Source: Candidatus Gottesmanbacteria bacterium (GTDB taxonomy: Bacteria; Patescibacteriota; Microgenomatia; 2-02-FULL-39-11). From it: DNA of 64,000 nt. The position numbers were made by a program, and so were the translations under genes. The stretch is taken from NCBI GenBank assembly GCA_016186795.1, contig JACPKY010000002.1:797892-861891 (forward strand). Direction: 5' to 3'. The notes below the pieces were generated by a model. The model searched no databases and was not told the DNA's origin. It saw only the letters and a program-made list of their open reading frames with translations. This document shows positions 13,806 through 59,553 of this stretch, one piece after another (the stretch's first letter is position 1; each line of letters starts with the position of its first letter).

Positions 13806-14378
13806 ATGACGATTGATTCTGCCACAAAAAAATTACGATTGTTTTTCCGAGAACAAAGTCGACTCCCGTCCTATCAAGAAATGTGTATCCTTTTTGGATT
13901 TGCTTCAAAAAAAGCAAGTTTTGAACTTGCAAAGAAGCTTATTCATGCTGGTGTCGTCGAAAAGGATGCTTCAGGAAAACTTCGCCCGAAAAATCTCTTC
14001 TCACCCCTTCCAGTACTCGGATCAATCCAAGCCGGTCATCCGACTTTTGCTGAACAACACCTCCTTGACACGATGTCGCTTAACAATTACCTCGTTGAAA
14101 GACCAGATCATTCGTATATTCTTAAAGTGACCGGAGATTCAATGATTGAAGCAGGTATCTATCCAGGAGATATGGTAATCGTCGAAAAGGATCGGCAACC
14201 AAAAAACGGAGATGTTGTTGTAGCATTCATCGATAATGGTTTCACGCTAAAGTATTACAGGGAGGAAAACACTCATGTCTACCTTGCACCTGCAAACAAA
14301 AAGTATCCTCCTATGTATCCTCAAGAAGAACTTACTATTTTTGGTATTGTTGTTTCCGTTATGCGTAAATATTACTAG
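13806..14378 (+). CDS. lexA: LexA repressor (S24 peptidase)
   Basis: LGSIQAGHP cleavage region, VTGDSMIEAGI (Ser nucleophile), FTLKYY (Lys). Confidence 0.9.
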   Translation: MTIDSATKKLRLFFREQSRLPSYQEMCILFGFASKKASFELAKKLIHAGVVEKDASGKLRPKNLFSPLPVLGSIQAGHPTFAEQHLLDTMSLNNYLVERPDHSYILKVTGDSMIEAGIYPGDMVIVEKDRQPKNGDVVVAFIDNGFTLKYYREENTHVYLAPANKKYPPMYPQEELTIFGIVVSVMRKYY

Positions 14379-15069: not shown

Positions 15070-16230
15070 TTACTCTTCTTCACAATCGCTCCCAAGTCCC
15101 CCAACACAGTGTTCTGTTGGAGGTTTGCCGCGTTCAGGACATTTCTCTGAATAGATACATGCTGTATCTGAAATAGAATCAATTTGTTTCGCAAGTGCAG
15201 TACCACTTGTATCTCCAAAAGAAATAAGGATACGATCAAGATCAACAGGTTTATATGCGCCAAACTCTGGGCTTGGTTTGCCGTTTATCAAAAACTGAAG
15301 AGTATTTTTTTCACTTGAGCAGTATTTTTCATTTTCACTAAGTGTAAAACAAGTAGGAGTAAAACCAATTCCTAAAGAAGAAAAGAAATCTCCGATAGTC
15401 ATTTCTTCTTTGTGGAGATGGATAATTTCGCCATTACCATCATGAAGATGAATATTCTCATTTAATTCATTTCCCTCTTTTGATTGATATTTATCTTGAC
15501 TAAAATCAACTGTTTTCCCCAGTATGTAAACTTTAAATGCCACATGAGCATGGTACTTCTCTGTAGGAGAAACAGTAATAGGAGATTTAATAATTGCAGC
15601 TTTAATCAGTGTTTGAAAGTCTTCGTAACTTCTGGGGTTTTCAATCTCTTCGCCGTTTATATAAAATGTCGGTGTTGAGTTAACACCGAGAGCAAAACCA
15701 TCTTTCACGTCTTGATCAATTTTTTCCTTCACAGGAACAGATTCGATATCTTTCTTAAACATATCACTATTCAATCCAAGAGACTGTGCGTATTGCAGAG
15801 CTAAATCTTGTGCACTATTTGATTCAGACCACTCATTTTGTTTCTCAAATAAGATATCATGCATTTCCCAAAATTTTCCCTGTAGTCCTGCAGCTTCGGC
15901 AGCAGATGCTGCCAGAGAGGCATTTTTATGCTGCTGCAATGGAAAATTGCGAAATACAAATGTCAAATCAGTTGCAAATTCATTTTTGAGACGGGTGAGA
16001 ATCGGATAATATGCACCGCAAGCGGGACATTGGAAATCTGCAAATTCGACCAACGTCACAGTGGCAGATGGTGAGGAAACTTTCTGACTATCTGCACGAA
16101 CAAGAAGTGAACTATCCGCTTTTTGTGGTTGCGTTGGAGTACTTGAGGAAGAAAAGAAGAAAATTGCTGCAAGGAGAATCATTCCTGTAGCAAGAATGAC
16201 TCCAATAATAACCTTCACATCGTTGGTCAT
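15070..16230 (-). CDS. DsbA-family thiol:disulfide oxidoreductase with a C-terminal extension
   Basis: N-terminal TM; FADFQCPACGAYYP (CPAC active site); GKFWEMHD. Confidence 0.75.
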   Translation of the reverse strand: MTNDVKVIIGVILATGMILLAAIFFFSSSSTPTQPQKADSSLLVRADSQKVSSPSATVTLVEFADFQCPACGAYYPILTRLKNEFATDLTFVFRNFPLQQHKNASLAASAAEAAGLQGKFWEMHDILFEKQNEWSESNSAQDLALQYAQSLGLNSDMFKKDIESVPVKEKIDQDVKDGFALGVNSTPTFYINGEEIENPRSYEDFQTLIKAAIIKSPITVSPTEKYHAHVAFKVYILGKTVDFSQDKYQSKEGNELNENIHLHDGNGEIIHLHKEEMTIGDFFSSLGIGFTPTCFTLSENEKYCSSEKNTLQFLINGKPSPEFGAYKPVDLDRILISFGDTSGTALAKQIDSISDTACIYSEKCPERGKPPTEHCVGGLGSDCEEE

Positions 16231-16268: not shown

Positions 16269-16649
16269 CTATTTTCCACCGATGATCTGGAGAATATTGT
16301 TATCAGGGTCGGTAAAAGTAGCAAAATACTTATCAAATGTCGGAGCTTTGAAAGGACTTGCGAGAAATACAACATCCTTCGCTTTCAACTCCTCGTATGT
16401 TTTGGAAACAGACTTAACCACAAAATTGATCATATGTCTATGTGGATCTTGGTTTTTCCCTTTCACTTTTGAGTGCTTCCCTATCCATAGATAGACAGTT
16501 CCTACCATAAATCCAACGCCAGTATCGTTGGGATGGTGAATCTCTTCAATTTTGTTAAGATGTAAAACATCTTGATACCACTTCGCAAGCTTTCTGTAGT
16601 TATCTGACCAGATAAGGACTGCTGAAATAGTCTGAAACATGTACCACAA
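16269..16649 (-). CDS. VOC (glyoxalase) family protein
   Basis: 126 aa with a VOC-like fold pattern. Confidence 0.55.
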   Translation of the reverse strand: MWYMFQTISAVLIWSDNYRKLAKWYQDVLHLNKIEEIHHPNDTGVGFMVGTVYLWIGKHSKVKGKNQDPHRHMINFVVKSVSKTYEELKAKDVVFLASPFKAPTFDKYFATFTDPDNNILQIIGGK

Positions 16650-16776: not shown

Positions 16777-17307
16777 ATGACACGAATTTCACCTCATCAA
16801 GTCACTTTTCACACCTTCGATTCTCCTTTGGGAAAAATTCTTATTGCCATAATGAATAAACGTGTTTGTATGACAATGATTGGAAATAAAAAAGAGGTGC
16901 TTGAAAAAGAATTTCTTGGGAAATATCCGCAAGCCAGGATTCTTTCTGCAAATAAACTACATTCTTCTTACCACAATTCTATTCTTTCCTTCATTTCCGG
17001 GAAATTGAAAGTAATCAAGGTTCCACTTATCCTTTATGGGACTAGTTTCCAGAAAACGGTTTGGAGAGAACTTCAGAAAATTCCATATGGAAAAACCTCT
17101 ACATATAAAGAAATTGCGAAACGGATCGGCTTTCCGAGAGCTTATCGTGCCGTTGCCAATGCCTGTGCCGCAAATTCTTTGGCACTACTTATTCCGTGTC
17201 ATCGAGTTATTCGAAGCAACGGAAGACTTGGTGGGTATCGTTGGGGAATCGCTCATAAAAAAATGCTTTTAAAACTCGAAAAAGAACATACGGAAGCTCG
17301 CTTATAA
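16777..17307 (+). CDS. ogt: Methylated-DNA--protein-cysteine methyltransferase
   Basis: IPCHRVI active site and a YGKTSTYKEIA helix. Confidence 0.85.
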   Translation: MTRISPHQVTFHTFDSPLGKILIAIMNKRVCMTMIGNKKEVLEKEFLGKYPQARILSANKLHSSYHNSILSFISGKLKVIKVPLILYGTSFQKTVWRELQKIPYGKTSTYKEIAKRIGFPRAYRAVANACAANSLALLIPCHRVIRSNGRLGGYRWGIAHKKMLLKLEKEHTEARL

Positions 17308-17326: not shown

Positions 17327-18637
17327 TCAATAGTAAAGTATAAATGTCGGGTAATCCTCTACATTTATGAATTTTTTTCCAAGGAAATTTTCGATCGTTG
17401 GTAACCGTGGATATCCCATCTCCTCTTTTTTTCGAATAGCAATACGTATATCGTTTTTTATAAGATCACTCACAATCGTTTCTTCGTATTGTGGATAATA
17501 GGAGTCGATGAGGGGAAAATACAAAGGTAAATATGTTGGTGGCAAAACATCATAATGGAGATATTCAATCGTATGATTATTGAGAATATAGAAACGACGA
17601 TTCTCAATTTGAAAGTGACTAAGAAGTGGATAAATTTTCTGTGTGTCAATGAATTCCTCTCTCTGGGGAAGAGAACGAAGTGTCCGATACAAGTGAATAG
17701 TCTTTCGAAGTATCAAACCTGTGTAGAAAAATAAGAAGCAGAGAAAAAGAAATCTTCCCGTACCCTTCATTGATTTAAACGACCTACCATAAACAAGGAA
17801 TGCAAATGTGATAAAGGGGAGAAAATGGAGTTTAAGAACGTTCGTGAGAAGAAATACTGTCGATAGGAGAAGTGTCATTATTAAAAAAGAATCGTTTTTA
17901 ATCGTTTTCTTTCTTAAAATTTTAAAAATAGCAACAACGAGTAAACCCATTCCGAAAAGAAAATATGCCGTTAAGTCAGTACGGACTATACGATCATAGT
18001 TAAGGAAAAGATGTCTATTGAACGTAAAAAGAGAAAATACAAGTTGGGAGAGACTGTTTTTATAACTAAAGTACAGGAAAAGGAGTTCCCACCCTAAAAG
18101 AATTATTAAAAAACTGTGAATTCTTTTTGTAAAAAACAAAATTGGAATAAAAAGTAAACCAGCCGGTGGTTTTATAAATGAGGCAGAAAGAGCAACGAAT
18201 CCTAAAGCGATGCTTTTTCCGGCAGTTACTTTCCCAAATGTTATTGCATACGCAAGAAGAAATAGAGTCGTGATGACAACTTCATACCATACAAAATTTT
18301 CAGAAATAAAATAATTCATTAGGACAAATAGGAACCCAACAAGAAAAAATGTGCCCTTGGATGAAATTTTCCGTAAAATGGAAAGAAACAAGAGAAGATT
18401 AATCGATTGGAAAAGAAAGTATATCCATTTATACGCAGAAAATGAGAGATCATTTGCAATTGGAGAAAATACGAAGTAAAGAAGAAAACCGTGATGATCA
18501 AAAAAATCCCTGTATGGAAGGAGACCTTTCTGTATGAGCCAAGAGAATAAATATATTTCCGGAGGCACCTGAATATTGGTAGTCAGAATAAGATAGGATT
18601 GAATAAAAAAATAAATAATACTTATGAGGATAATCAC
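17327..18637 (-). CDS. Polytopic membrane protein, possible GT-C-like glycosyltransferase
   Basis: 436 aa with many TM helices; the conserved-looking LPYRDFFDHHG lies in the first loop. Confidence 0.45.
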   Translation of the reverse strand: MIILISIIYFFIQSYLILTTNIQVPPEIYLFSWLIQKGLLPYRDFFDHHGFLLYFVFSPIANDLSFSAYKWIYFLFQSINLLLFLSILRKISSKGTFFLVGFLFVLMNYFISENFVWYEVVITTLFLLAYAITFGKVTAGKSIALGFVALSASFIKPPAGLLFIPILFFTKRIHSFLIILLGWELLFLYFSYKNSLSQLVFSLFTFNRHLFLNYDRIVRTDLTAYFLFGMGLLVVAIFKILRKKTIKNDSFLIMTLLLSTVFLLTNVLKLHFLPFITFAFLVYGRSFKSMKGTGRFLFLCFLFFYTGLILRKTIHLYRTLRSLPQREEFIDTQKIYPLLSHFQIENRRFYILNNHTIEYLHYDVLPPTYLPLYFPLIDSYYPQYEETIVSDLIKNDIRIAIRKKEEMGYPRLPTIENFLGKKFINVEDYPTFILYY

Positions 18638-19927: not shown

Positions 19928-21490
19928 GTGTATGATAAAAAAATGTCAGATACTCTACTTATGAGAACACTTCTTATCATATCACTTTTGTATTTTGTGT
20001 CTGGTTTGCTACTTCTTCCTTCCTATCAACATCAACTCAATCCGGACACGATCTCTTACATAAATATTGCCCGTAGATATATCGTACTTGATTTTAAAAA
20101 TGCTATTGATCCGTATTGGGGACCATTATTTTCATGGATGTTAATTCCACTCATGGTAGTCCACATTGAGCCAACGATTGCGGTAAAAATTACGCAACTT
20201 CTCATAGGATTTCTTGCCATCGTTGGAGTAAAACTCCTAATAAATCAACTACGTTTTCGGAAACACCTGCAAATATGGTGCCTCCTGACTGTAGCACCGT
20301 TAATACTGTATTTTGCCTATAGTGTAGGAACCCCTGATCTATTAGGGGTTACAATTACCCTATTCTATCTCTCGTTCGTCATTGATAAAAATTTCTTTCT
20401 GGGAAAAAAATCAGGAATATTTCTTGGCATTCTCGGTAGCCTCATGTATTTTTCTAAGAGTTATTTTTTCTTTTTTTTCCTTCTTCATTTTCCTCTTATG
20501 AGCGTTCTCCACCTACATGGAAATAGAGCAAGGAAACTTAAAAAGTCTATTGCTACAACAGTTGTATATGCCTTCATCGCCTTTTCCCTTCTCTCCGGTA
20601 TTTGGATAATTGCGGTAAGTATGAAATTACACACATTTTCAATTGGTACTGCAGGAGAATATAATTATCGTCTGGTAGGACCTCTTTCTCGTGGTCAACC
20701 AATGCACTATCAGGGATTTTTGAGTCCCCCTGCAGGAATTGCCACAAGCGCATGGGACAGTCCGAGTGATCTAATCCTTCCTTCCTGGAATCCATTCGAC
20801 TATCCACTCTACCAAGTATTTCTCCTCCAGAAAAATCTTGGGTTGACCGTTTCGTATTTGCAAACATTTTCTTCTTTTTCTCTTGGGGTACTTCTTCTCT
20901 ACTTCGTACTGATACTTTCAATTTACCGACGGGAACACACCTTTCCCTCGCACCTCTACATTTTTATTACTTTCATGCTCTCGATTCTTAGCTATATAGT
21001 AATTTTCCCGGAAGAACGGTACCTCTGGTTTGCCTTTCTGCTTCTTGTTATTATGGCAGCTCATATCATACAGAGTGCTACCGATCTTCCATTCTTTGCA
21101 TTCTGGCATAACGTGGCACTCCTTGTCTTTCTTGCTATTTCTTTCACTATTATGCCTACACAGCATCTTTTCCAAGGTAGAGATACCGGCAAAGATGTAT
21201 ACGAGCTAAGTCAATTCTTAAGGCAAAAAGACGAAATATCGGGAAATATCGCGTCAAATTCCAACTGGTATACTTCACTATATCTTGCATTCTATTTCGA
21301 TAGTAAATATTACGGGGAAAAAGGTGAAATCCCCCAAGACTCTATCGCTGACGCTTTGAGAGCCAATTCTATTGATTATTACTTCTACTGGTTAAATAGT
21401 GGAGAAAAAACTGACACAACTTTGAATAATTACAGTGATTTATATGTTGAATTACCGTTTCTACGAATTTACAAAGTGTCCAAAGAATAA
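19928..21490 (+). CDS. GT-C-fold membrane glycosyltransferase-like protein (ArnT/PMT-like)
   Basis: 520 aa, multi-TM. NPDTISYINIARRY resembles the DExxY..IAR first-loop motif of GT39/GT83 proteins. Confidence 0.5.
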   Translation: MYDKKMSDTLLMRTLLIISLLYFVSGLLLLPSYQHQLNPDTISYINIARRYIVLDFKNAIDPYWGPLFSWMLIPLMVVHIEPTIAVKITQLLIGFLAIVGVKLLINQLRFRKHLQIWCLLTVAPLILYFAYSVGTPDLLGVTITLFYLSFVIDKNFFLGKKSGIFLGILGSLMYFSKSYFFFFFLLHFPLMSVLHLHGNRARKLKKSIATTVVYAFIAFSLLSGIWIIAVSMKLHTFSIGTAGEYNYRLVGPLSRGQPMHYQGFLSPPAGIATSAWDSPSDLILPSWNPFDYPLYQVFLLQKNLGLTVSYLQTFSSFSLGVLLLYFVLILSIYRREHTFPSHLYIFITFMLSILSYIVIFPEERYLWFAFLLLVIMAAHIIQSATDLPFFAFWHNVALLVFLAISFTIMPTQHLFQGRDTGKDVYELSQFLRQKDEISGNIASNSNWYTSLYLAFYFDSKYYGEKGEIPQDSIADALRANSIDYYFYWLNSGEKTDTTLNNYSDLYVELPFLRIYKVSKE

Positions 21491-21493
21491 AAT

Positions 21494-22084
21494 ATGCCTC
21501 TTGATAATCCAAAAACTTCTCCATTAACCATGCAAGATAGAAGACTAGAAAAGGCAACCCTTGCAGGAGGCTGTTTTTGGTGCATAGAGACAGTGTTTCG
21601 AAGGATACGGGGAGTAGTCTCCGTAGTCTCCGGATACTCAGGAGGATCAATCAAAAATCCAAAAGACAGCGATATCTACAGTGGAAAAACGGGTCATGCA
21701 GAGGCGATACAAATTACATTTGACCCTTCCGTTATTTCGTTTGAGAGACTCCTGTATATCTTTTGGCATATGCATAATCCGACAACACTCAATAAGCAAG
21801 GAGCAGATATCGGAACACAATACCGATCAGTTATTTTTTATCACAGTGATGAGCAGAAAAAAGCTGCATTTGACTCAAAGCGCAAAATAGAAAAAGAAGG
21901 AATATATGAAGATCCAATTGTTACGGAAATTATACCGTTTAAGAATTTCTATCCTGCACCGTCATACCACCAGAACTTCTATGAGAAGAATTCCTACCAA
22001 CCGTACTGTTCAATAGTTATTGATCCGAAAATTCGCCAACTTGTAGAAAAATTTGCGAAAGATATGAAAGACGAATATCGATAA
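21494..22084 (+). CDS. msrA: Peptide methionine-(S)-S-oxide reductase
   Basis: GGCFWCIETVF active-site motif, about 190 aa. Confidence 0.9.
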   Translation: MPLDNPKTSPLTMQDRRLEKATLAGGCFWCIETVFRRIRGVVSVVSGYSGGSIKNPKDSDIYSGKTGHAEAIQITFDPSVISFERLLYIFWHMHNPTTLNKQGADIGTQYRSVIFYHSDEQKKAAFDSKRKIEKEGIYEDPIVTEIIPFKNFYPAPSYHQNFYEKNSYQPYCSIVIDPKIRQLVEKFAKDMKDEYR

Positions 22085-22477: not shown

Positions 22478-23968
22478 ATGAAAACTGTCCTGCGGTTACT
22501 CGCAAGTCTTATCTTTTTCCTCTCATTCTTTTCGTTTCTCCTCTTGACAGCATTTAAGACGAAACTTTTGACTCCAACCTTCTGGAGTGCTCCTTTACAA
22601 AAAGCAGACGTGTATATCTACATTGAGAATCAGATTAAATCACTGCCGTCAAATCAATTAGGATTTACCGTATCTTCAAAAGAATTACAAGATACGATTG
22701 AAACAAATATTGAGAGACTGATTGTGTACTTTTCCAAAGGGGAGAGAAAACTCACTCTCTACATTCCGATACACCAGTGGAGACTCCCGCAACAACTTCT
22801 CACCCAACCTCCCTTTTCGAAACTTACTGAAGAGACAGATTTTGAAACATTCGCAAACCTCATTCTTCCAAAAAATCAGGTGAAAGAGATTCAAACGTAT
22901 CTCAATCTTACGCAACAGATTGTTTTGATTCTTCCGATTATGCAAATTGTCCTCTTGATTGTTGGAGCTATTTCAATTGCTTCAGTGTATGCACTGGGGA
23001 AGGACACAGCAGGAAAAATACGAGGTACATTTGAACTGGTCTTCGTATCGGGACTTTTCACAACGCTGGGAAGTTATGGGGTATTAAAAATACTAGAAAA
23101 GATCATAAATGGTTACCCCGGAATGAATCCATATCTTAAAGAAGTTTTTAGCGATTGGATCAGCGATTTTTTAAGTATCGGTCAACTTGGAGGACTAACT
23201 GCCCTGATTGGAGGACTTCTGGGAATACTTTCTGTTTCATATCTGGTACGCACGGGGCATGTACACGTTGAGAAAGAATCCGAGCCACAGACAAATCAAA
23301 AAGGTGCAAAAAGCAAGAAAAAAATCATCATTGCAATTTTGGTATTTCTACTTCTTGCTTTTGTCATATCAAAAGGCAAATTCACCCTAACCATGACAAG
23401 AACTGGTCAAGATAGCCAAATTGCGCAAGATCAGAATATTAATGAGGAACAGAAAGAGAATAAATCACTCCAGAAAAATCTCATACTTTCAGATGCGCCG
23501 TATGTGAGCCAATTTGGCTGGTCAATGAAATATCCCCAGGGGTGGTCTATAAAAAAACACGATCCCTCTCAAACAGTCCTCATTCACAAAACATCAAACC
23601 AGACTGAAAGAGACTGGGCGTCACTTGCTGTTGAACCGTTCGATCGTGTAACAGGCGTAAAAGACGATGAATTCTTGAAAGTGTTATCAGATGTTATCTC
23701 AACAGGTCGACTTGAACGACATCCCAACTCAAAACTAGTTGGAACACCAATGGAAGATGAATGGAATGGTTTCAAACGGTTTATTGCACAGTTTGATTAT
23801 ACTGATAAGGAGTCTAGTCTTGCCCTTCGCCAACTCAGATGGTATTTACTACCTATCCAAGAAACCCGGCAAGGGTATTTACTCTATAGCACTTCACCGG
23901 TTACGAGATTTGACTCGTATGAAAGCATCTTGAAAAATGCAATGAGTAGCTTCAAAATAGATCAGTAA
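22478..23968 (+). CDS. Membrane protein, hypothetical
   Basis: 496-aa ORF with an N-terminal TM and further TM segments in the middle. Confidence 0.45.
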   Translation: MKTVLRLLASLIFFLSFFSFLLLTAFKTKLLTPTFWSAPLQKADVYIYIENQIKSLPSNQLGFTVSSKELQDTIETNIERLIVYFSKGERKLTLYIPIHQWRLPQQLLTQPPFSKLTEETDFETFANLILPKNQVKEIQTYLNLTQQIVLILPIMQIVLLIVGAISIASVYALGKDTAGKIRGTFELVFVSGLFTTLGSYGVLKILEKIINGYPGMNPYLKEVFSDWISDFLSIGQLGGLTALIGGLLGILSVSYLVRTGHVHVEKESEPQTNQKGAKSKKKIIIAILVFLLLAFVISKGKFTLTMTRTGQDSQIAQDQNINEEQKENKSLQKNLILSDAPYVSQFGWSMKYPQGWSIKKHDPSQTVLIHKTSNQTERDWASLAVEPFDRVTGVKDDEFLKVLSDVISTGRLERHPNSKLVGTPMEDEWNGFKRFIAQFDYTDKESSLALRQLRWYLLPIQETRQGYLLYSTSPVTRFDSYESILKNAMSSFKIDQ

Positions 23969-27322: not shown

Positions 27323-27362
27323 AAAAACAACCCATCAAGAAAAAGCGTGATGGGTTGTTTTT
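27323..27362. terminator. Bidirectional rho-independent terminator between convergent genes
   Basis: Stem ACAACCCATCA / TGATGGGTTGT followed by a T run. Confidence 0.55.
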
Positions 27363-27937
27363 ATATTGTGTATTACATTCTGAGAAATTTCAGTAAGCGT
27401 CCGTTTAGTTTTAGCTGAAAAATCATAATCATTTGCATTGTAGTCTTTTTGGACGTACTCATCTTTGTGCTTGATAAGAAGCCAGGAGTTTTTGGGGCCA
27501 AAACCCCGAGTTTTGATGAGTGCAAAAGAGCCTTTGAGTTTGCTACCAAAGAGTTGAAATTTTAGTTCTCCTTTTTTCATTCCCTCCTTCATCACTTTTT
27601 GCGCTACCTCCCTATCTTTCACAAGTTCCCGTCTCCCCTTTTCCAATTCAATTTCCGGAATATACGCACCTGTATCCCAAATCATCACAGTACCAGCACC
27701 ATAGTTGTCCGGAGGGATTATACCTTCAAAATGTCGATATGTAAGATCATGATCCGGTGTTTGCATCGCCAGGCGTTTAACTGTTGGATCCAATGACGGA
27801 CCTTTGGGAATAGCCCATGATGGCATAACGTTCCCTATCTGCAAACGGAAATCATAATGCAGGCGTGTTGCTGCATGCTTATGTATGACAAACACAAGCG
27901 AATCAGATTTTTTCCCGATGATAGCAAGTTGTTTCAT
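27335..27937 (-). CDS. Stand-alone DNA ligase D 3'-phosphoesterase (LigD PE) domain protein
   Basis: HYDFRLQ...SWAIPKGPS...GAGTVMIWDTG pattern of LigD_N/PE. Confidence 0.75.
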   Translation of the reverse strand: MKQLAIIGKKSDSLVFVIHKHAATRLHYDFRLQIGNVMPSWAIPKGPSLDPTVKRLAMQTPDHDLTYRHFEGIIPPDNYGAGTVMIWDTGAYIPEIELEKGRRELVKDREVAQKVMKEGMKKGELKFQLFGSKLKGSFALIKTRGFGPKNSWLLIKHKDEYVQKDYNANDYDFSAKTKRTLTEISQNVIHNIKTTHHAFS

Positions 27938-27957: not shown

Positions 27958-28350
27958 TTAACTAGTTGGTTGGAGCATACTTATTAGATTACCCTCAGTA
28001 TCATGAAATGAAACATACCATCCAACGCCTGGAATTTCCATAGGTTTTCCAAGAATATGTCCACCAGCACTCTTTACTTTTTCAATATGTGCGTTGATAT
28101 CATCAACTTGAATGACAACAGATGGATATTTACTTGGATTGTCAACTGACTTTGGGAAAAATCCTCCGTTAATCGCTCCTGGTTTTAATGGGCCTTTTTT
28201 ATCTGATTCAGTTGTCATCACAACGACATAATTTCCCATTTCCGGACCCATCTTGTTGCATTCCCATCCAAAGACATTGGAGTAAAAATTCACCATGCGG
28301 TCTCTATCCTCAACAGGCATCTCAAAGTGGACAACAGGATTCATTTTCAT
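27958..28350 (-). CDS. VOC (glyoxalase) family protein
   Basis: 130 aa, VHFEMPV...GWYVSFHDTEGN. Confidence 0.65.
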   Translation of the reverse strand: MKMNPVVHFEMPVEDRDRMVNFYSNVFGWECNKMGPEMGNYVVVMTTESDKKGPLKPGAINGGFFPKSVDNPSKYPSVVIQVDDINAHIEKVKSAGGHILGKPMEIPGVGWYVSFHDTEGNLISMLQPTS

Positions 28351-28501: not shown

Positions 28502-29056
28502 TTATTGGATTACTAGTTTCGAAGAGTAATCAACTGCCCGTAAAGAATCTCTGGTGGGTGAAAGATCCTCAGCCATTTTTTTGACCTGTTCCAATTTCTC
28601 TTTGGGGGCTGCGCTTTTTACATAATGAGTCACTCGGATATTTTGGAATCCAGGGCGAATCTTCCCAGGTTCTGGTAATGCCAGCATTCCCTGAAGATCG
28701 ACATTGCCGGTAACCACAACTTTCAGACTATCGATGGGAACACCGAGACTGGCACCGTATGTAGCCCAACCTGAAGCGATGCAGTGGCCTAAACTTGCTA
28801 AAAGTAATTCAACAGACGTTGGCCCATACCCACTACCTAAAAGCTCTTTCGGATGATCCCCTTCGACTTTAAAGGTTTTGCTGTGTGCAAGTTTTGCTCC
28901 ACCAACAGAGAAGTTATTTATTTCCGCAACATTTCGGAAACCACTCTGCCAGTCGGTAGAAGCTGCAAAAGTTGCATATGCCGAAGCTGGATTTGCCTTC
29001 ACACCCTCAACCATAGCAGTTATGTTTTTAACTTCTAGTCCATTCACTTTTGCCAT
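28502..29056 (-). CDS. OsmC/Ohr-like family protein
   Basis: LLLASLGHCIASG resembles the OsmC Cys region; 184 aa. Confidence 0.5.
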   Translation of the reverse strand: MAKVNGLEVKNITAMVEGVKANPASAYATFAASTDWQSGFRNVAEINNFSVGGAKLAHSKTFKVEGDHPKELLGSGYGPTSVELLLASLGHCIASGWATYGASLGVPIDSLKVVVTGNVDLQGMLALPEPGKIRPGFQNIRVTHYVKSAAPKEKLEQVKKMAEDLSPTRDSLRAVDYSSKLVIQ

Positions 29057-41002: not shown

Positions 41003-41668
41003 CTATTTTGTGATGTAGCTTTCTACTTTACTTTTAAATTCGTCAAGATTTTCCATGTATCCTACACTATTGCCATTGACAAAAAATTGTGGAATTCCAG
41101 ATATATTTAGTGCCTCCGCATCTTCCACATCTCTTTTTATCTTTGCCTCAAACTTATTGTTCTGAATTGACTCTCTAAATCTCTCAACATTCAGGTTTAA
41201 TTCTTGCGCGTAACGAACAAAAATGTCTATGGCAGTTTCGCTTTCTTCCCAGTCCTTTTGTCTTGAAAGTAAAAGGTCATGCATCTCCCAAAACTTCCCT
41301 TGCTCACTTGCAGCTTCGGCAGCTTCTGCTGCAGTCTTCGCATTTTTGTGTTGATTTTCCAAAGGCCAATATCGAACAACTAATCGTAATTTACCTTGAT
41401 TATCTGAAAGGAGTTGTTTTACTGCGGGGTGCATATAAGCACAAGCCGGGCATTGATAATCCACAAATTCCACTAGAATAACCTGCGCACTTTGAGATCC
41501 AACAGTAGGACTATCTTCTCTTATAAGTAAATCTTGAGATGGAGCGCGAGATGGATTTTGTGCAGATTGCGATCTATAGAAGAATAACGCAAGGGCAAGT
41601 ACGATAACGATGCCAATTACAATAAGAAGTTTTCCCCCAAGAGGAGAAGCTTGTTTTGCAGTGACCAT
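41003..41668 (-). CDS. DsbA-family thiol:disulfide oxidoreductase (second paralog)
   Basis: VEFVDYQCPACAYMHP, GKFWEMHD; N-terminal TM. Confidence 0.75.
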   Translation of the reverse strand: MVTAKQASPLGGKLLIVIGIVIVLALALFFYRSQSAQNPSRAPSQDLLIREDSPTVGSQSAQVILVEFVDYQCPACAYMHPAVKQLLSDNQGKLRLVVRYWPLENQHKNAKTAAEAAEAASEQGKFWEMHDLLLSRQKDWEESETAIDIFVRYAQELNLNVERFRESIQNNKFEAKIKRDVEDAEALNISGIPQFFVNGNSVGYMENLDEFKSKVESYITK

Positions 41669-52332: not shown

Positions 52333-53430
52333 TTATTCCAGATAATCTTTTAGTTTTTTACTCCTTGAGGGGTGGCGTAATTTCCGTAGTGCTTTTGCCT
52401 CTATTTGTCTGATTCTCTCCCTGGTCACACCAAATTCCACACCGACTTCTTCTAGTGTTCGAGGACGACCGTCTTCAAGACCAAATCTAAGTATCAGGAC
52501 GCGCTTTTCTCTATCTGAGAGCGTTTGGAGAACCTCTTCCAGATGCTCTTTGAGAAGTTCTCTCGATGCAGAATCATATGGAGATGGCTGCGATGTATCT
52601 TGGATAAAATCACCAAGGAGTGAATCCTCATCATCTCCAACAGGGGTTGCAAGGGATGTTGGCTCTTGCGATACTTTCATAATTTCGCGGATTTTGGTGA
52701 CATCCACTTGCATGGCTTTGGCCACCTCTTCAGGCATCGGCTCACGCCCCAAATCCTGCATGAGTTTTCTGGAAATCTTTAAGTATCGATTGATCGTCTC
52801 AACCATATGGACCGGTATTCGGATTGTCCTAGCCTGATCTGCAATTGCCCGGGTAATTGCCTGTCGTATCCACCATGTAGCATAGGTTGAGAACTTATAC
52901 CCTTTTCTCCAATCATACTTTTCAACTGCCCGTATTAACCCTTGGTTTCCTTCTTGGATAAGATCAAGAAGAGAGAGCCCGCGCCCTATATACTTTTTGG
53001 CAATGGAGACGACAAGACGAAGATTTGACTCGATCAGTTTCTGTTTGGCCCAGCGTTCGCCTTTTTCGTAGTGCTTGGCAAGACTTATCTCATCTTCAAA
53101 TTTTAGAAGAGGGATTCTCCCAATTTCTTTGAGATACATCCGTACTGGATCAGAAATTCCCCCTTCGTGGATGATAGCAAGAGACTCAAGTTCCTTTTCT
53201 AGTTCGGTAACAGTTTTTTGGGCATCCCGCTCCTCCTCATCTGAGAGGTTTTCAAATACATCAACCTCAGCTTTAATAAGCTGCCCATACAGTTCATCTA
53301 CTTCTGTTAAATGTTCCTCGGGTTTGGGGAAAAGGACAAGAATATCATCTTGGGTAATAAATCCATTCTCTTTCCCCTGCTTGATGAGTTCTTTGACAGT
53401 CTTGGATACTTTGGTCGTCATAGCCTTCAT
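52333..53430 (-). CDS. rpoD: RNA polymerase primary sigma factor
   Basis: Regions 2-4: [54 protein letters not shown]. Confidence 0.95.
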
Positions 53431-53439
53431 ATTGTACTT

Positions 53440-55221
53440 TTACCGGAGTGCTTTATCAACCTGGGAAAGACCCACTAATAGGTCGCGAAGTTCTTCTTGG
53501 AGTTTCTCATTTTCTTTCCCTTCTTCCTCCGATAATCGTATCTTAGTCGTAAGATCTGCTACTCTCCTTCGGAGTGCATTTTTCTTGCATTCGTAAAGAC
53601 TTTTTGTGAGTTCGTCATGGTAAAGTTGAGGATTTTTTAAAAGAACATCAAGTCCCACAAGATATGCCCGATCGAATGTTTCGGAAATCTCAGGAGTGAG
53701 GGTTTTTTCAAATACTTTTACATCAAGCGTTTCATGTGATTGGAAATACGCATTGAGAAGTTTCATAATTTGGGCAACAGGTGGTATAGAAAAATCACCT
53801 GTATCAACTATTTCAAGTGCGTGTAAGAAAGCTTCTTTGGGATTTGCACTTTGAAGGATAAGAGAAAGAATATGTTCTTCCAAAAGGCCACTTCTGTTAC
53901 CTACTTTTTTTTCATCGAAAACGACGTGTTTTTGTGGCCGTTTCTTGACGTGAAGATCAATTGCTATCTCAATTGATTCCTCCGTTACTCCCAGTTCACG
54001 CGCTACAAACTTTACGTAATGAGAAAGAACAATGGGGTTTGTGATTTTCGAAAGAAAAGGAATAATTTCATCTCCAACTTTTTTCTTTGCCGAGACATCA
54101 TCTTTCCCGTATTTTTTGATGGCAGTCTCGATGATGAAGTCATAGATGGGAAATGCGGTACTTACTGCTTTCTTCCATGCATGAGGCGCTTCGGAAATAC
54201 ACTCTGCCGGATCTTTCCCTTGCGGAAGTTGTACAATCTTGACTGTTAACCCTGCATTTTCGGCAACTTCAATTCCCCGTCTTGCAGCTTCGTTTCCTGC
54301 AAAATCACTATCAAGAGCAAGAAGGAGTGTCTCGGTATATCGCTTCAACGTCAACACCTGTCCTTCTGTAAGAGCTGATCCTTTGATTGCAACAACATTC
54401 GTCACTCCGGACTGGAAAGAGGCAAGAAGATCGAACTCACCTTCCACAACAATTGCTTCTTTTACCTTTTTAATAGAATCTCGTGTTACATCTAACCCGT
54501 AGAGATTATTTCCTTTGCTATATATGGGCGTATCTGATGTATTGACGTATTTTGCCTCTCTGTCATTTTGGGGAGGGAGCTTTCTTCCGGAAAATCCCAA
54601 AACATTTCCTCTTGGGTCTTTGAGTGCAAACATGAGGCGGCCTCGGAATCGATCGTAGTATCTTCCCCCATCTGTTTTGATAATAAGTCCTGCGGTATAG
54701 ATCTCATCAGAAGTGTACCTTTTTTTTAATAGAAACTTGTGCAAACTGTCCCAACTATTTGGGGAATATCCCAAACTAAATGTTTTAATAGTTTCGTCTT
54801 TTATCTTTCGATCTTTGAGGTATTCTCTTGCCTTATTCCCTAAGTTGTGGGAGGTAAGAATGTAGGAAAAAAATTCAGAAGCCAAGTGATTTATTTCATA
54901 GAGCTTTTCTTTCCTTCTTCCTTCATCTGTAGGTGTGTATCGGGAAAGCGTAACTCCGGTTTTGCCTGCCAATATTTTGAGTGCCTCCAGAAAATCGATA
55001 TTTTCCCACTTCTCCAAAAACTTCACTACGTCTCCGCCCTCTGCACATGCCCCAAAGCAGTGCCATGTCTGCCGTTCAGGAGAAACAACAAATGAAGGGG
55101 ATTTTTCACTATGAAATGGGCAAAGCGCTTTGAAGTTTCTGCCGGCTTTTTTTAGCTGTATATAATCGGAGAGGAACTCAACAATATCTATTTTTGATTT
55201 TACAAGTTCGACATCTGTCAT
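53440..55221 (-). CDS. dnaG: DNA primase
   Basis: Zinc finger CPFHSEKSPSF...HCFGC; TOPRIM VVEGEFDLLAS. Confidence 0.95.
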   Translation of the reverse strand: MTDVELVKSKIDIVEFLSDYIQLKKAGRNFKALCPFHSEKSPSFVVSPERQTWHCFGACAEGGDVVKFLEKWENIDFLEALKILAGKTGVTLSRYTPTDEGRRKEKLYEINHLASEFFSYILTSHNLGNKAREYLKDRKIKDETIKTFSLGYSPNSWDSLHKFLLKKRYTSDEIYTAGLIIKTDGGRYYDRFRGRLMFALKDPRGNVLGFSGRKLPPQNDREAKYVNTSDTPIYSKGNNLYGLDVTRDSIKKVKEAIVVEGEFDLLASFQSGVTNVVAIKGSALTEGQVLTLKRYTETLLLALDSDFAGNEAARRGIEVAENAGLTVKIVQLPQGKDPAECISEAPHAWKKAVSTAFPIYDFIIETAIKKYGKDDVSAKKKVGDEIIPFLSKITNPIVLSHYVKFVARELGVTEESIEIAIDLHVKKRPQKHVVFDEKKVGNRSGLLEEHILSLILQSANPKEAFLHALEIVDTGDFSIPPVAQIMKLLNAYFQSHETLDVKVFEKTLTPEISETFDRAYLVGLDVLLKNPQLYHDELTKSLYECKKNALRRRVADLTTKIRLSEEEGKENEKLQEELRDLLVGLSQVDKALR

Positions 55222-55230
55222 GCACTGGTA

Positions 55231-56673
55231 TTATACAGCTGCCTTCCCCAAACGATAGAGGCGATAGTTTCCTTGTATATCCCAGGTTTTTTCTATAGTA
55301 AAGGCACCAAAAGAGGTAACTTCAAAAAGTTGAACCTTCGTTAAATCTTCATGAGATCGCGCTACGACATAAAGGTGTTGCGGTGTGTCATACTGTTCAA
55401 CTGGCAATGGCTGTTTCCCCCAAACGGTAAGGAAATATCGTAGGGGATACCCCTGATTTTCAGCATCAACCAGCATAACAAGATTAAAGTCGGTAACTGT
55501 TACGTCCTCGAAAATAATTCTGCTTGCTTTCTCTACTCCTGGTAAATTCCAACCTGGATCCATTGTCCAACCATTCACATCGCCGAATCCATAGGAAGAA
55601 AAACTAATAAGGAAATACATCATGGCAAATAGAAAATACGCGAAGATTCTCTTACTTGAATACAAGATTCTATCGAGAACGGTAGAGAATAAAAGAGCAA
55701 AAGGAATTACCGCATTAATGATGTAATGAGGAACTGTTTGGCGAACGAAGAAAATAACAAAAAGAATAGTACCTACTATTTGAAGCAAGAATACCGCTTC
55801 GTTTCTCGTCAGTCTCTTTTTTTGTAAGTGAAGAAAAAATAACAATAAAGAAATTGCAACAACGGTCAGAATTATTTTCCCTCCGAAAAAATATTGACTC
55901 ACTGCATCAACAAGATATAAAACACTTCTTCCAATCTCAATAGTTTCGGACTCACCACGTGATATATGAGCTACAAGCATTTTTGTATTGAAAAACTCAT
56001 GGCGGAATTCAAAAAGGAGCAGTGGAAAAAATCCTACAAGAAAACCGATTAAAAGAGTCAGGAAATATGTGGTTTTTTGCCTCGTCGTAAAAAAGAATAT
56101 CGGAAATAACGCTGCAGCGACAAAAAGTGACAGTGTGGAGTAATGAACTTGTAATGCTACTCCTAAAATAAAACCGAGAAACGCAGCATAATACCATCTG
56201 TATTGCTTCGCAAGTAATAATAGTACATAAAGGCTAACTGCCGAAAAAATCAATGGAGAAAATGCGAGAAGATTTTGGCGGGAAAATTTTACAAGGAGGG
56301 GAGATGCTGCGATAAAAAAGGCAGCAAGCAATCCTACCCGAATATTTATAAATCTCCTCCCAATACGGTACGTAACAAAAACCGCACTCAAGGATAATAG
56401 AATTTCTACTATTCCCCCTGCAATGGGATTGTAATTGAATAGATAAAGAAACGGCGCATATATGTAGTACATAACAGCTCCGTTCCTTACTTCGGAAATT
56501 GATGTCTTGATACCAATGAGTGTAAATTTCCCTTGGAGAATTTTCGCTGTTGATAGTAATTCTATGGCCTGATCACCACGGAAAGTCGCAAGTTCCTTTA
56601 GACGATACGTCCTTAGGGTTGTTCCCAAAAGAAGAATGGAGCTAATAAGTATAATTCCTACATACTTTTTCAC
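55231..56673 (-). CDS. GT-C-fold membrane glycosyltransferase (ArnT/PMT-like, GT39/83-like)
   Basis: YRLKELATFRGDQAIEL first-loop motif; 480 aa, multi-TM. Confidence 0.55.
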   Translation of the reverse strand: MKKYVGIILISSILLLGTTLRTYRLKELATFRGDQAIELLSTAKILQGKFTLIGIKTSISEVRNGAVMYYIYAPFLYLFNYNPIAGGIVEILLSLSAVFVTYRIGRRFINIRVGLLAAFFIAASPLLVKFSRQNLLAFSPLIFSAVSLYVLLLLAKQYRWYYAAFLGFILGVALQVHYSTLSLFVAAALFPIFFFTTRQKTTYFLTLLIGFLVGFFPLLLFEFRHEFFNTKMLVAHISRGESETIEIGRSVLYLVDAVSQYFFGGKIILTVVAISLLLFFLHLQKKRLTRNEAVFLLQIVGTILFVIFFVRQTVPHYIINAVIPFALLFSTVLDRILYSSKRIFAYFLFAMMYFLISFSSYGFGDVNGWTMDPGWNLPGVEKASRIIFEDVTVTDFNLVMLVDAENQGYPLRYFLTVWGKQPLPVEQYDTPQHLYVVARSHEDLTKVQLFEVTSFGAFTIEKTWDIQGNYRLYRLGKAAV

Positions 56674-56725
56674 CGTTTCATTGTATCATTCGCGTGAGTT
56701 AATGGATTGGGTCGACTAATACACT

Positions 56726-57565
56726 ATGAATGAAGGAAAAGCAGTTTCTCCGGCAAGTATAAGTTTCATTTTCAAAGTATGTAAAAATAGGCAAGGCGAA
56801 ATCGTAGGTTCAATCGGAGTTGGGGCAACAATTGATAAATCGGTGATGGTTGCGGTAAAAAAATCCACCCAATTGTCTGTGTACTTTAATGGGGAGAGTA
56901 TTTCTTTCCCAACGGTGGAAACTGTAGTCCAAAAACTTACAAAGAATCCTGTTGAAATCTCTGTTACATCAGAGGTCCCACTTGCTTGTGGTTTTGGTGT
57001 AAGCGGTGCATCAAGTATTGCGACAGCCTACGCACTCAATGCTCTCTTTCAATTGGGAAAAGATCCCGATACTCTTGCCAACATCGCACACACGGCCGAA
57101 ATAGAAAACCGTACAGGACTAGGAAGTGTCGCAACTCAGATAACGGGTGGCTTTTTGGTGAAACGCGCTCCGGCAATTCCAGTTGATGCCGTGAAACTCC
57201 CTCTTCTCCACACCCCGTTGTTTGCATTGGTTTTGGAAAAATACGAAACAGCTAAGATTCTCAATGATCAACATAAAACATCCCGTATAAACCGGGCAGC
57301 AGAAAAAGCACTTCGGACAATCACTTCTATTCAAAATCTTGGCATATCGAAGATTCTTGATATAAGTTATGAGTATGCAATAGAGAGCGGAATTTTGGAA
57401 AACTCCGAAGTTCAGCTCGTCATTGAGAAAGTAAAAAGACAGGGAGGGCATGCAACGATGGCAATGATTGGTCATACAGTTTTTAGTACCATTCCCCCAC
57501 CGGACTACTTTGGAGGAAACGTCTATTCACTTCGCATTTCAAAGACAATCGCACATATACTATGA
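56726..57565 (+). CDS. GHMP-family kinase, pantoate kinase (PoK, COG1829)-like
   Basis: GHMP motif PLACGFGVSGASSIATAYAL; about 280 aa. A 4-nt overlap with the next gene. Confidence 0.5.
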   Translation: MNEGKAVSPASISFIFKVCKNRQGEIVGSIGVGATIDKSVMVAVKKSTQLSVYFNGESISFPTVETVVQKLTKNPVEISVTSEVPLACGFGVSGASSIATAYALNALFQLGKDPDTLANIAHTAEIENRTGLGSVATQITGGFLVKRAPAIPVDAVKLPLLHTPLFALVLEKYETAKILNDQHKTSRINRAAEKALRTITSIQNLGISKILDISYEYAIESGILENSEVQLVIEKVKRQGGHATMAMIGHTVFSTIPPPDYFGGNVYSLRISKTIAHIL

Positions 57566-58320
57566 AGATAGACAAAAACCATCCCCGATTTCTCGCTCTT
57601 TCTGTCCGTGAACGGCTTGTTGATGGTGTCAAAAAAGGAATCACATCTCATGCCGGACTTATCGCCCATGGGAGAGGAGAAGCATTCGATTATCTTCTTG
57701 GAGAAAAAACACATGGGTTTGCCAAAGAGTCAATTACTGCTGCCGCCTGTTACCTACTTCTTGCAAAAAATCCGATACTTTCTATCAATGGGAATGCTGC
57801 CGCACTTTGTGCCGAAGAATTTGTGAAAATTGCAAAATTTCTGGATTGTAAAATTGAGGTCAATCTTTTCCACTATACGAAAACGCGAGAGAAATGTTTA
57901 GAAGCGTGTCTTTCGAATCTCGATCCCTCAGTTATCCTTTCATCGAAAGGTCGGAAAACGCGTATTCTTCCCAATGTAGCAAGTCCTAGAAAAATTATCT
58001 TGCGAGATGGAATCGGAAGAAGTGATACTGTTTTTGTTCCCCTTGAAGACGGCGACCGCTGTGGTGCACTTGTCTCACTTGGGAAAAAAGTCATAACCAT
58101 TGATCTTAATCCCTTATCCAGAAGTTCACAAACAGCAACAGTCACCATCGTTGATAATATCACCCGAGCAATGCCGAAACTTCTTTCGGAACTTCGCCGA
58201 CTCCAAAAATTCAAACCGTACCAAAAAAAAGAAATTGTTCGCGATTTCGACAATAAAACAAATCTTGCTCGCTCGTTTGCTACAATTCAGAAAAATCTTT
58301 CACGATTGGCCATTCCATAA
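57562..58320 (+). CDS. Archaeal-type phosphopantothenate synthetase (PPS, COG1701/DUF137)-like
   Basis: HPRFLALSVRE...AGLIAHGRGEAFDYLLGE pattern recalled from the archaeal PPS family. Confidence 0.5.
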   Translation: MKIDKNHPRFLALSVRERLVDGVKKGITSHAGLIAHGRGEAFDYLLGEKTHGFAKESITAAACYLLLAKNPILSINGNAAALCAEEFVKIAKFLDCKIEVNLFHYTKTREKCLEACLSNLDPSVILSSKGRKTRILPNVASPRKIILRDGIGRSDTVFVPLEDGDRCGALVSLGKKVITIDLNPLSRSSQTATVTIVDNITRAMPKLLSELRRLQKFKPYQKKEIVRDFDNKTNLARSFATIQKNLSRLAIP

Positions 58321-58335
58321 GACTCCTGTGATATC

Positions 58336-58713
58336 ATGGATATGATGAAAATCCTGAAACGGCTATTCCTTATTGGCGCCATTTTGGGCATTGGTGCTCT
58401 CGGAGTTGTGTATACTGGAGTATTAAAAAACCAACCGATCTTAGAGAAAAATATTACCATCAATCCCAATATTTTGGGAGAAAATATTTCTCTAGAACCC
58501 ACAATGAGCTCGCAAATAAATCAATTTGTAGGGGAAACATTCCAATCAACCAAAGAAACTGTTGGCCAAAAGGTTGAGGAGGTAGAAAAAACCATTGTGA
58601 AATCTGTCGAAAAAGAAGTTACCAATCTCACACAGTCGCAAATCACTGTGCTCCAAACCAAGATTTGTCAGGATTGGGGAATCATCACTCCAGTTCCAAC
58701 CTCAAATCCGTAA
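58336..58713 (+). CDS. Exported hypothetical protein
   Basis: Signal/TM N-terminus; 125 aa. Confidence 0.35.
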   Translation: MDMMKILKRLFLIGAILGIGALGVVYTGVLKNQPILEKNITINPNILGENISLEPTMSSQINQFVGETFQSTKETVGQKVEEVEKTIVKSVEKEVTNLTQSQITVLQTKICQDWGIITPVPTSNP

Positions 58714-58725
58714 GTATACTACTGG

Positions 58726-59553
58726 TTATTTCACCTCAAGAGTTTGTTCATCACCCCAGTAGTTTTCGCCGTTGATGATGGCATGTACACGGTAATAATA
58801 GGTACCGGCTGTTGTAAATTTTGGAGTATTTCCAACAAACCGAAGTGGAATATTGTACTTGCCGTTTGAAAACTCAGTCACTAGATCTTCATATGTCGTA
58901 TCATCAGGTTTTACATTTTTCCCTAATACTCCAGGATTTGACTTGGTTCCAAAATGAACTGATGTATGAGGAATGGTTGTTGGAGGACCATCAACAGTCC
59001 AGGTAAATGTCACAACACTCCCAACCCCTACTTCTTTTGGAGAATCGACAAGAGACACTTTGTAGCCTGGAACAGAAACATCGAGTGAATACTCATCCGT
59101 CCAGTAGTGTTTGTCTTTTATAAACGCATAGACTCGATAGTAGTATTTCCCAGTTTGAGTCAATGAAACATTTCCAACAAATGTCAGCGGAACTGCATAG
59201 TTGCCGTTGGAGAAGTCTTTCAAAATCTCGGTATACTTGGTATCAGATGGCTGGACTTCTTTTCCCAACTCACCGGGAGTTGATTCTTGGCCCAAATATA
59301 CTTCTGTTTTGTTTATCGTTGTCGGAGGTCCTTCCACCTTCCAGGTAAACGTTGCCGGAACTGTTGTTGTCACGTCCTTTGGCGCATCAACGAGCGATAC
59401 TCGATAATCTTGCGCAGGAGATAGGAGCATTTTCAGGCCAAAAAGTCCAACGACGAGAAGAATAACCGCACCAATGATCCACAACACTTTATTCTGCGAA
59501 GCATCGAGTACTTCCGTTTCTTGGGTTTCTTTTCTATCTTTATCATTTTCCAT
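58726..59553 (-). CDS. Membrane-anchored protein with two tandem homologous beta-rich domains of about 110 aa
   Basis: Internal duplication: YRVSLVDAPKDV...YYYRVYAFIKDKHYWTDE and YKVSLVDSPKEV...YYYRVHAIINGENYWGDE. Confidence 0.5.
   Translation of the reverse strand: MENDKDRKETQETEVLDASQNKVLWIIGAVILLVVGLFGLKMLLSPAQDYRVSLVDAPKDVTTTVPATFTWKVEGPPTTINKTEVYLGQESTPGELGKEVQPSDTKYTEILKDFSNGNYAVPLTFVGNVSLTQTGKYYYRVYAFIKDKHYWTDEYSLDVSVPGYKVSLVDSPKEVGVGSVVTFTWTVDGPPTTIPHTSVHFGTKSNPGVLGKNVKPDDTTYEDLVTEFSNGKYNIPLRFVGNTPKFTTAGTYYYRVHAIINGENYWGDEQTLEVK

Follow-up and report, generated by a model that had tools for sequence, protein, structure and literature searches.

Pantoate kinase (PoK) as well as phosphopantothenate synthetase (PPS), both enzymes of coenzyme A (CoA) biosynthesis, have been described as unique to archaea (PMC6650551), and the characterized members from Thermococcus kodakarensis and Methanospirillum hungatei act as PoK and PPS (PMC6650551, PMC7883664). 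The pair achieves the same net conversion as the bacterial enzymes PanC and PanK (CoaA/CoaX), that of pantoate, beta-alanine, and phosphate to 4'-phosphopantothenate, but PoK and PPS belong to unrelated families and the steps are taken in the opposite order (PMC7883664, PMC6650551). Possession of PoK/PPS or of PanC/PanK was long held to be a marker of archaea and bacteria, respectively, a rule that was broken when a PoK/PPS pair was described in sponge-symbiont Poribacteria without PanK and pantothenate synthetase (PS) (Thomes & Lescure 2020; PMC7883664). In the literature that we searched, no paper linked pantoate kinase to the candidate phyla radiation (CPR), Patescibacteria, Microgenomates, or DPANN, and none that cited the Poribacteria study extended it. 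Here we analyze a 64-kb stretch of DNA (the window) assigned by NCBI to a Candidatus Gottesmanbacteria bacterium of the CPR, a groundwater organism with a tiny genome (locus tag HYW55_05500; contig of 1,118,283 bp), in which two adjacent open reading frames, ORF1 and ORF2, resemble the genes for PoK and PPS. We conclude that the two genes likely encode a working PoK and a working PPS that follow the archaeal order of steps in a CPR host and that were probably acquired long ago from a DPANN pool. The PoK/PPS route and the presence of an archaeal pair in a bacterium were already known, and what is new is the CPR Gottesmanbacteria lineage, the DPANN-type clade to which its pair belongs, a stable synteny with dnaG-rpoD, an insertion of panD, and CoaBC-PoK fusions in relatives.

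The pair was noticed when the window was read from its letters alone, and that sequence-only reading proposed a PoK (COG1829) and a PPS (COG1701) encoded by two genes with a 4-nt ATGA overlap. The coordinates of both ORFs and the overlap were found as described when read in the sequence (Table 1), as were the motifs that had been named, a GHMP motif (PLACGFGVSGASS) at residues 85 to 97 of ORF1 and HPRF together with GLIAHGRGEAFDYLLGE in ORF2. The stop/start overlap suggests that PoK and PPS are translationally coupled. Five independently assembled Logan contigs carry an identical PPS, and in the four that were read, PoK lies directly upstream and the flanking genes are the same; because the same arrangement is found on independent contigs, the pair is not a one-off assembly artifact. 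A scan of positions 56400 to 59000 for promoters and terminators gave nothing above shuffled controls, and the operon boundaries are therefore inferred from spacing only. The scan also showed no terminator-like site between PPS and the conserved small ORF that follows it, and the small ORF may belong to the same transcription unit. Finally, an Rfam scan of the whole window returned zero matches, and therefore no riboswitch was assigned upstream of the pair. The divergently transcribed PMT_2-family glycosyltransferase gene on the other side of PoK is a syntenic neighbor outside the CoA pathway.

ORF2 is, by sequence, a clear member of the PPS family. A search with PF02006, suggested in the sequence-only reading, matched ORF2 with 210.9 bits (cutoff, 26.4) over profile positions 1 to 175 of 176, and the NCBIfam PPS/PS subfamily model NF010324 was also passed (318.6 bits; cutoff, 227). 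Alignments to PPS proteins of solved structure ran over residues 2 to 250 of its 252 (4mb0, E 2.1e-65; 3wdk, E 1.7e-64). In an alignment of ORF2 with 81 relatives, it kept 51 of the 53 columns showing 95% identity or more, and the family-invariant HPR, GRGEAFDY, NGN, PLEDGDR, DLNPLSR, and other motifs were retained. The near-invariant exceptions were Ala12, where 80 of 82 sequences have Ser, and Ser154, where 78 of 82 have Ala.

ORF1 is a divergent GHMP kinase that is closer to PoK than to other GHMP families both in sequence and in modeled fold. It matched the GHMP kinase N-terminal domain (PF00288) with 50.4 bits (cutoff, 22.3), and its phosphate-binding motif, P-x-G-x-G-x-S-(G/A)-A, is contained in PLACGFGVSGASS. 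The top NCBIfam family was the pantoate kinase model NF040725 with 133.3 bits, followed by mevalonate kinase with 41.6, and the top PDB sequence match was T. kodakarensis PoK (TkPoK; 6jbc), full length at E 1.6e-11, followed by a match at E 4e-6. Consistent with the sequence searches, an AlphaFold2 model of ORF1 built with 36 homologues (pLDDT, 94.4; pTM, 0.92) retrieved 6jbc first in Foldseek (TM, 0.83; E 2e-21), with the next match at E 5e-16 and TM 0.71 and all other GHMP kinases at E 5e-16 or worse and TM of 0.72 or below. Moreover, ORF1 keeps all 12 of the columns that are 100% invariant across 55 PoK sequences. Residues S104, E134, D143, R155, and T186 of TkPoK are reported by Kita et al. 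2020 to be catalytic or pantoate binding, and S104, E134, R155, and T186 align to S93, E125, K146, and T175 of ORF1. The R155 position is Lys throughout the DPANN-type clade, and the D143 column, Ser in ORF1, varies between D, T, and S even in bona fide PoKs of archaea. Thus, the profiles and the fold both agree with the assignment of the pair as PoK and PPS, with ORF1 below the cutoffs of the PoK equivalog models.

The T. kodakarensis enzymes PoK (6jbc/6jbd; TK2141) and PPS (3wdk-3wdm; TK1686) and the PPS of T. onnurineus (4mb0) belong to the same families as the window pair, with the same GHMP and PPS folds. The window PPS is 45% identical to T. kodakarensis PPS over 247 aligned columns, whereas the window PoK is about 26% identical to TkPoK, lies in a separate DPANN-type clade (100% bootstrap), and differs at D143 (Ser) and R155 (Lys). 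Unlike in T. kodakarensis, the host is bacterial and the two genes lie side by side and overlap. ORF1 would use ATP to convert D-pantoate to 4-phosphopantoate, and ORF2 would join 4-phosphopantoate to beta-alanine, with a further ATP, to give 4'-phosphopantothenate. The archaeal order of steps would then stand in for bacterial PanC and PanK, neither of which was detected in the window. Both enzyme activities are predictions.

The surroundings of the pair are conserved. The arrangement rpoD<dnaG(<PMT_2)/PoK>PPS>small ORF is found again in five further Gottesmanbacteria metagenome-assembled genomes (MAGs), one "Patescibacteria group" MAG, and two metagenome contigs in which PoK is just 38 to 42% identical to that of the window. 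The rpoD/dnaG synteny was seen in loci L005 to L007, L030, L051, L085, L087, and L088, and the order from rpoD to the small ORF is kept down to 38 to 46% PoK identity. The PMT_2 gene holds the same position in L007, L025, L051, and L085 and lies upstream of coaBC>PoK>PPS in Levybacteria. Because the synteny persists in divergent relatives, we conclude that the pair is an old resident and neither a recent insertion nor a chimera. Recent horizontal transfer was also considered on grounds of composition and rejected, as the GC content at third codon positions of the pair (0.35 and 0.31) falls within the distribution of the window genes (0.32 +/- 0.04), and overall GC does likewise.

A homologue of the small ORF directly follows PPS in all eight aligned Gottesman-type loci (the window, L005, L006, L007, L025, L030, L051, and L085). 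Its N terminus contains a hydrophobic stretch, and its C terminus carries a conserved motif, LTQSQ..IC.DWG. Its position is held in L087 and L088 by ORFs of 132 and 125 amino acids (aa) without a Pfam match. L025 carries the Gottesmanbacteria synteny rpoD<dnaG<PMT_2/PoK>PPS>small ORF under a "Gammaproteobacteria" label, and some MAG labels look wrong (L025 and L017, as well as L020, L034, L041, L053, and L063). In a 1.13-Mb contig of a Microgenomates group bacterium (L089), panD is immediately upstream of dnaG-rpoD, the same chromosomal neighborhood in which Gottesmanbacteria keep PoK-PPS; PoK and PPS were not found within 10 kb of that panD-dnaG-rpoD cluster.

To what pathway the pair belongs is indicated by the neighborhoods of its relatives. 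The survey covered the 80 best PPS loci in GTDB species genomes, with neighboring ORFs clustered and the recurrent ones run against Pfam. In most of these loci, archaeal and bacterial alike, PoK lies immediately upstream of PPS, and panB adjoins the pair in 28 and panE in 14. A pyridoxal phosphate (PLP)-dependent decarboxylase gene adjoins it in Cloacimonadota, and coaBC lies next to it in DPANN, Nitrososphaerales, Cloacimonadota, and, within CPR, Levybacteria (coaBC>PoK>PPS). In two Nanoarchaeia/Nanoarchaeota MAGs, CoaBC and PoK are fused (L023 and L045); the L023 protein consists by Pfam of Flavoprotein and DFP domains (CoaBC) followed by a GHMP kinase, and the C-terminal part of both fusions matches the window PoK in BLAST. 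Such a fusion joins two nonconsecutive steps of the CoA pathway. In the Gottesmanbacteria genome NC_groundwater_881 (L051), the order beside dnaG-rpoD is PoK>panD>PPS>small ORF, with panD encoding a pyruvoyl aspartate 1-decarboxylase (PF02261, 134 bits). Because panD sits between PoK and PPS, this operon contains a supplier of beta-alanine, the cosubstrate of PPS. We conclude from the linkage to panB, panE, panD, and coaBC that the family, and the CPR clade in particular, is tied to the path from pantoate through 4'-phosphopantothenate to CoaBC.

DPANN operons of the type panB>coaBC>PoK>PPS<HAD (L009, L014, L018, L022, L034, L061, and others) share with the window the PoK>PPS order and often the stop/start overlap. 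They add panB, coaBC (sometimes as the CoaBC-PoK fusion), and sometimes panD, whereas the Gottesmanbacteria locus consists of the pair and its lineage-specific small ORF only. Cloacimonadota (L056, L068, L044, L033, and L057) and one member of the Sediminispirochaetaceae (L065) have a near-complete module, PoK>PPS>panE>panB>PLP-dependent decarboxylase>coaBC; it is of the classical TACK/Asgard-like type and was acquired independently of those of CPR and Poribacteria. In a Microgenomates MAG (L012) and a "Gammaproteobacteria"-labeled MAG (L017), panB is directly upstream of PPS, and PoK was not detectable within the fetched loci.

Trees of PoK, of PPS, and of the two concatenated were built by neighbor joining with 100 bootstraps. 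In the PoK tree, the sequences fall into two clades with 100% support apiece. Euryarchaeota, TACK, Asgard, and TkPoK share the first with Cloacimonadota and a spirochete. The other, DPANN-type clade comprises DPANN (Woesearchaeota/Nanoarchaeia) and Levybacteria as well as two further clades, one of Gottesmanbacteria (99%) and one of Poribacteria, Gemmatimonadaceae, and Methylomirabilia (100%). The PPS and concatenated trees gave the same clades but left the DPANN-type backbone poorly supported. Bootstraps along that backbone were 1 to 30%. In the phylogeny that the sequence-only reading had proposed as a check, the Gottesmanbacteria PoK/PPS form a clade among DPANN-type sequences, and the closest relatives outside CPR are DPANN (50 to 53% identity for PPS and 38 to 41% for PoK). 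That reading had left the choice between inter-domain transfer and a lineage native to the route; the evidence favors a transfer between the domains long ago, with vertical inheritance over a long time since, and a native-only origin is less favored. The simplest reading would be several independent transfers from archaea to bacteria, with the Gottesmanbacteria cassette drawn from a DPANN-like pool. The cassette would thus derive from a PoK/PPS clade shared with Woesearchaeota/Nanoarchaeia and, once acquired, would have been inherited vertically beside dnaG-rpoD.

Like the window, Poribacteria have an adjacent archaeal-type PoK/PPS pair in a bacterium, carrying no annotation beyond "GHMP kinase" or "PPS/PS" and belonging to the same DPANN-type clade. 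Unlike the window host, they are of another phylum and form an independent clade (100% bootstrap, with 99% for Gottesmanbacteria), and we therefore conclude that the Gottesmanbacteria acquisition was separate. The neighbors also differ, being dnaG/rpoD in the window and DUF6807 and a MiaB-like radical-SAM gene in Poribacteria, as do the genomes, which in Poribacteria are large with KPHMT, CoaBC, PPAT, and DPCK documented and which in the window host amounts to 1.1 Mb. The Poribacteria loci (L021, L026, L027, L031, L039, L042, L074, L078, and L080) and those of Gemmatimonadaceae and Methylomirabilia MAGs (L048 and L058) nest with DPANN. The clade that contains Poribacteria groups with L045 and L015 at 100% bootstrap, unlike in an earlier study, which placed Poribacteria PoK/PPS with Euryarchaeota (PMC7883664). 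Five contigs of "Methanosarcinales" coassembly MAGs (L020, L034, L041, L053, and L063) branch among Woesearchaeota/Nanoarchaeia. The same HAD-hydrolase gene adjoins the pair in all five, and L034 has the full panB>coaBC>PoK>PPS<HAD operon.

Between CPR (Gottesman-, Levy-, and Taylorbacteria and Microgenomates) and DPANN (Nanoarchaeota and Woesearchaeota), a 113-aa PanD of the bacterial pyruvoyl type shares 75 to 85% identity, and the Woesearchaeota contig with panD is truly archaeal, as it encodes an ATP-dependent DNA ligase, aIF5B, Trm1, and XPD. Such high identity suggests a relatively recent inter-domain exchange of panD. Genes of the pathway have therefore passed between the domains both ways. 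Lateral transfer between CPR and DPANN has a precedent in RuBisCO (PMC6389311).

Several observations weigh against a working archaeal-type pair of DPANN origin. ORF1 scores far under the PoK equivalog cutoffs (133.3 against 380 for NF040725 and 68.3 against 500 for NF041122), and ORF2 scores slightly under that of the PPS equivalog NF041123 (277.6 against 300). Both PoK models derive from PoK of the methanogen or Thermoplasmata type, and the branch formed by DPANN/CPR is separate at 100% bootstrap; we therefore read the ORF1 scores as those of a clade outside the coverage of the models rather than as exclusion from PoK. Ala12 of the window PPS (nucleotides 57595 to 57597) replaces the Ser of 80 of 82 relatives, including Ser13 of T. 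kodakarensis PPS, and it is not a sequencing error, because independent assemblies have the same sequence. The deep neighbor-joining branches are poorly supported, and the donor and the direction of transfer are therefore inferred. Finally, panB, panC, panD, panE, coaA, coaX, coaBC, coaD, and coaE were not found when the roughly 50 larger ORFs of the window and the annotated flanking genes were screened with Pfam, and tblastn of the window with panB, panD, panE, coaBC, and PLP-decarboxylase queries from related loci gave a best E of 0.24. The sequence-only reading had likewise seen no panC, panB, or panD in the window, and the Pfam screen agrees for all three and tblastn for panB and panD. Since neither source is encoded in the 64-kb window, pantoate and beta-alanine would be supplied from elsewhere in the genome, from a host, or from the environment.

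That absence could mean that the pair is a metabolic orphan in the 1.1-Mb genome of a symbiont, which may be without pantoate synthesis and the later CoA steps, or that it was recruited to a different hydroxy acid and amine, and the low equivalog scores of ORF1 and the unusual Ser-to-Ala change at PPS position 12 would fit such a role. We give this little credence, as the invariant residues have been strongly retained throughout a deep lineage (38 to 59% identity), the operon of a sister genome contains an inserted panD, Levybacteria have coaBC beside the pair, and CoaBC and PanD are widespread in CPR. A Levybacteria CoaBC query gave at least 7,504 matches in all. A different order of steps, in which ORF2 would be a pantothenate synthetase and ORF1 a pantothenate kinase as in bacteria, was reportedly the one first proposed for COG1701/COG1829 by Genschel in 2004 and Ronconi et al. 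in 2008, before the T. kodakarensis biochemistry. It could appeal to the name of NF010324, "phosphopantothenate/pantothenate synthetase," a model that ORF2 passes where it does not pass the PPS equivalog. However, the window proteins keep the family-invariant residues, the closest fold of ORF1 is that of TkPoK, and the characterized T. kodakarensis and M. hungatei members are PoK and PPS (PMC6650551, PMC7883664), which makes the bacterial order highly improbable.

The opposite direction of transfer, with a cassette native to CPR or to a shared pool of ultrasmall symbionts that moved from CPR to DPANN, deserves somewhat more weight but is still unlikely. It is compatible with the 1 to 30% bootstraps of the DPANN-type backbone, with the age of the Gottesmanbacteria synteny, and with the bacterial pyruvoyl type of the associated PanD, 75 to 85% identical between CPR and genuine DPANN contigs. 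PoK/PPS is nevertheless near-universal in archaea (PMC6650551) and patchy in bacteria, at least three separate bacterial clades are nested among archaeal sequences, Levybacteria branch apart from Gottesmanbacteria, and the trees show greater diversity among DPANN sequences than among those of CPR. A DPANN fragment misassembled or misbinned into a bacterial contig might be suspected, since CPR and DPANN occur together in the same 0.1-µm filtrates of groundwater and the labels of several MAGs in the comparison set (L025, L020, and others) seem to be in error. Against that stand the placement of the pair on a single contig, with bacterial dnaG/rpoD on one side and further CPR genes on the other, the same junctions on four independent Logan contigs, at least eight other CPR loci with the same arrangement, and a composition typical of the window. 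An assembly or binning artifact is effectively refuted by the independent contigs, the shared synteny, and the composition.

An extension of the reading with an archaeal-type pair acquired from DPANN is that CPR and DPANN, both of them radiations of ultrasmall episymbionts that live in groundwater, exchange between the domains a mosaic module of archaeal-type PoK/PPS, bacterial-type PanD, and CoaBC and that Gottesmanbacteria, keeping only the PoK-PPS core with panD in some, are pantoate scavengers. We consider this possible but put it forward tentatively. If it is true, pantoate rather than pantothenate would be a candidate cross-fed metabolite in relationships between CPR and their hosts. Apart from that extension, the pair indicates that at least some reduced CPR genomes retain part of de novo CoA synthesis, and it suggests that pantoate and possibly beta-alanine are precursors that they may have to take up, which is of use for cultivation. 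The exception to the archaea/bacteria rule made by Poribacteria is much broader, as it extends to Gottesmanbacteria, Levybacteria, other CPR, Cloacimonadota, Dehalococcoidia, and MAGs of Gemmatimonadaceae, Latescibacterota, and Methylomirabilia and seems to have arisen several times. The whole DPANN/CPR-type PoK clade goes undetected by the equivalog models now in use, and NCBI names the window kinase "hypothetical protein," although JGI labels some such CPR proteins "pantoate kinase." Because of that label and those models, pathway reconstructions will wrongly report a gap in CoA synthesis.

Table 1. Coordinates of features in the window and, where a locus is named, in related loci
Feature	Position	Strand	Length	Remarks
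ORF1, PoK-like GHMP kinase (DPANN/CPR type)	56726..57565	+	279 aa	
ORF2, PPS, 4-phosphopantoate--beta-alanine ligase family	57562..58320	+	252 aa	
ATGA stop/start overlap of ORF1/ORF2	57562..57565	+		Read directly from sequence
Small membrane-anchored ORF, conserved	58336..58713	+	125 aa	15 nt past PPS stop; without Pfam match
PMT_2-family membrane glycosyltransferase	55231..56673	-		PF13231; divergent from the pair
dnaG	53440-55221	-		DnaG zinc ribbon, Toprim, and DnaB_bind domains
rpoD	52333-53430	-		Sigma70 region 1-4 domains
BacA/uppP	5641-6417			Pfam
LexA-like S24 peptidase	13806-14378			Pfam
Ogt-like methyltransferase	16777-17307			
LigD 3'-phosphoesterase	27335-27937			
Redox/repair set, with thioredoxin, MsrB, MsrA, two DsbA-like proteins, and OsmC among them	1667-2155, 12157-12555, 15070-16230, 21494-22084, 28502-29056, 41003-41668			
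Same set, further coordinates	10311-10679, 16269-16649, 27958-28350			Set also includes three glyoxalase-fold proteins
ORFs without Pfam match	2160-3215, 6435-8027, 17327-18637, 19928-21490, 22478-23968		351-530 aa	E <=0.001
CoaBC-PoK fusion	L023:7965-9992		675 aa	
CoaBC-PoK fusion	L045:7912-9912		666 aa	
PoK>panD>PPS>small ORF	L051:8771-10741			
panD between PoK and PPS	L051:9632-9973			
panD-dnaG-rpoD	L089:10001-13310			
panB upstream of PPS	L012:4280-5742			
panB upstream of PPS	L017:9105-10735			
PanD comparison loci	P0205-P0324; L091/L092:10001-10342			

The remainder of the window is bacterial in character. The sequence-only reading had called the neighbors rpoD, dnaG, lexA, and uppP bacterial, and their Pfam domains agree, with lexA recovered as a LexA-like S24 peptidase gene. 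Further genes recognized by Pfam encode ZnuABC, MsrA, MsrB, DsbA-like proteins, PurU, and others. Five ORFs had no Pfam match at the E value given in Table 1 and are typical CPR dark matter. For a small genome, the window also has a high density of genes with redox and damage-repair functions.

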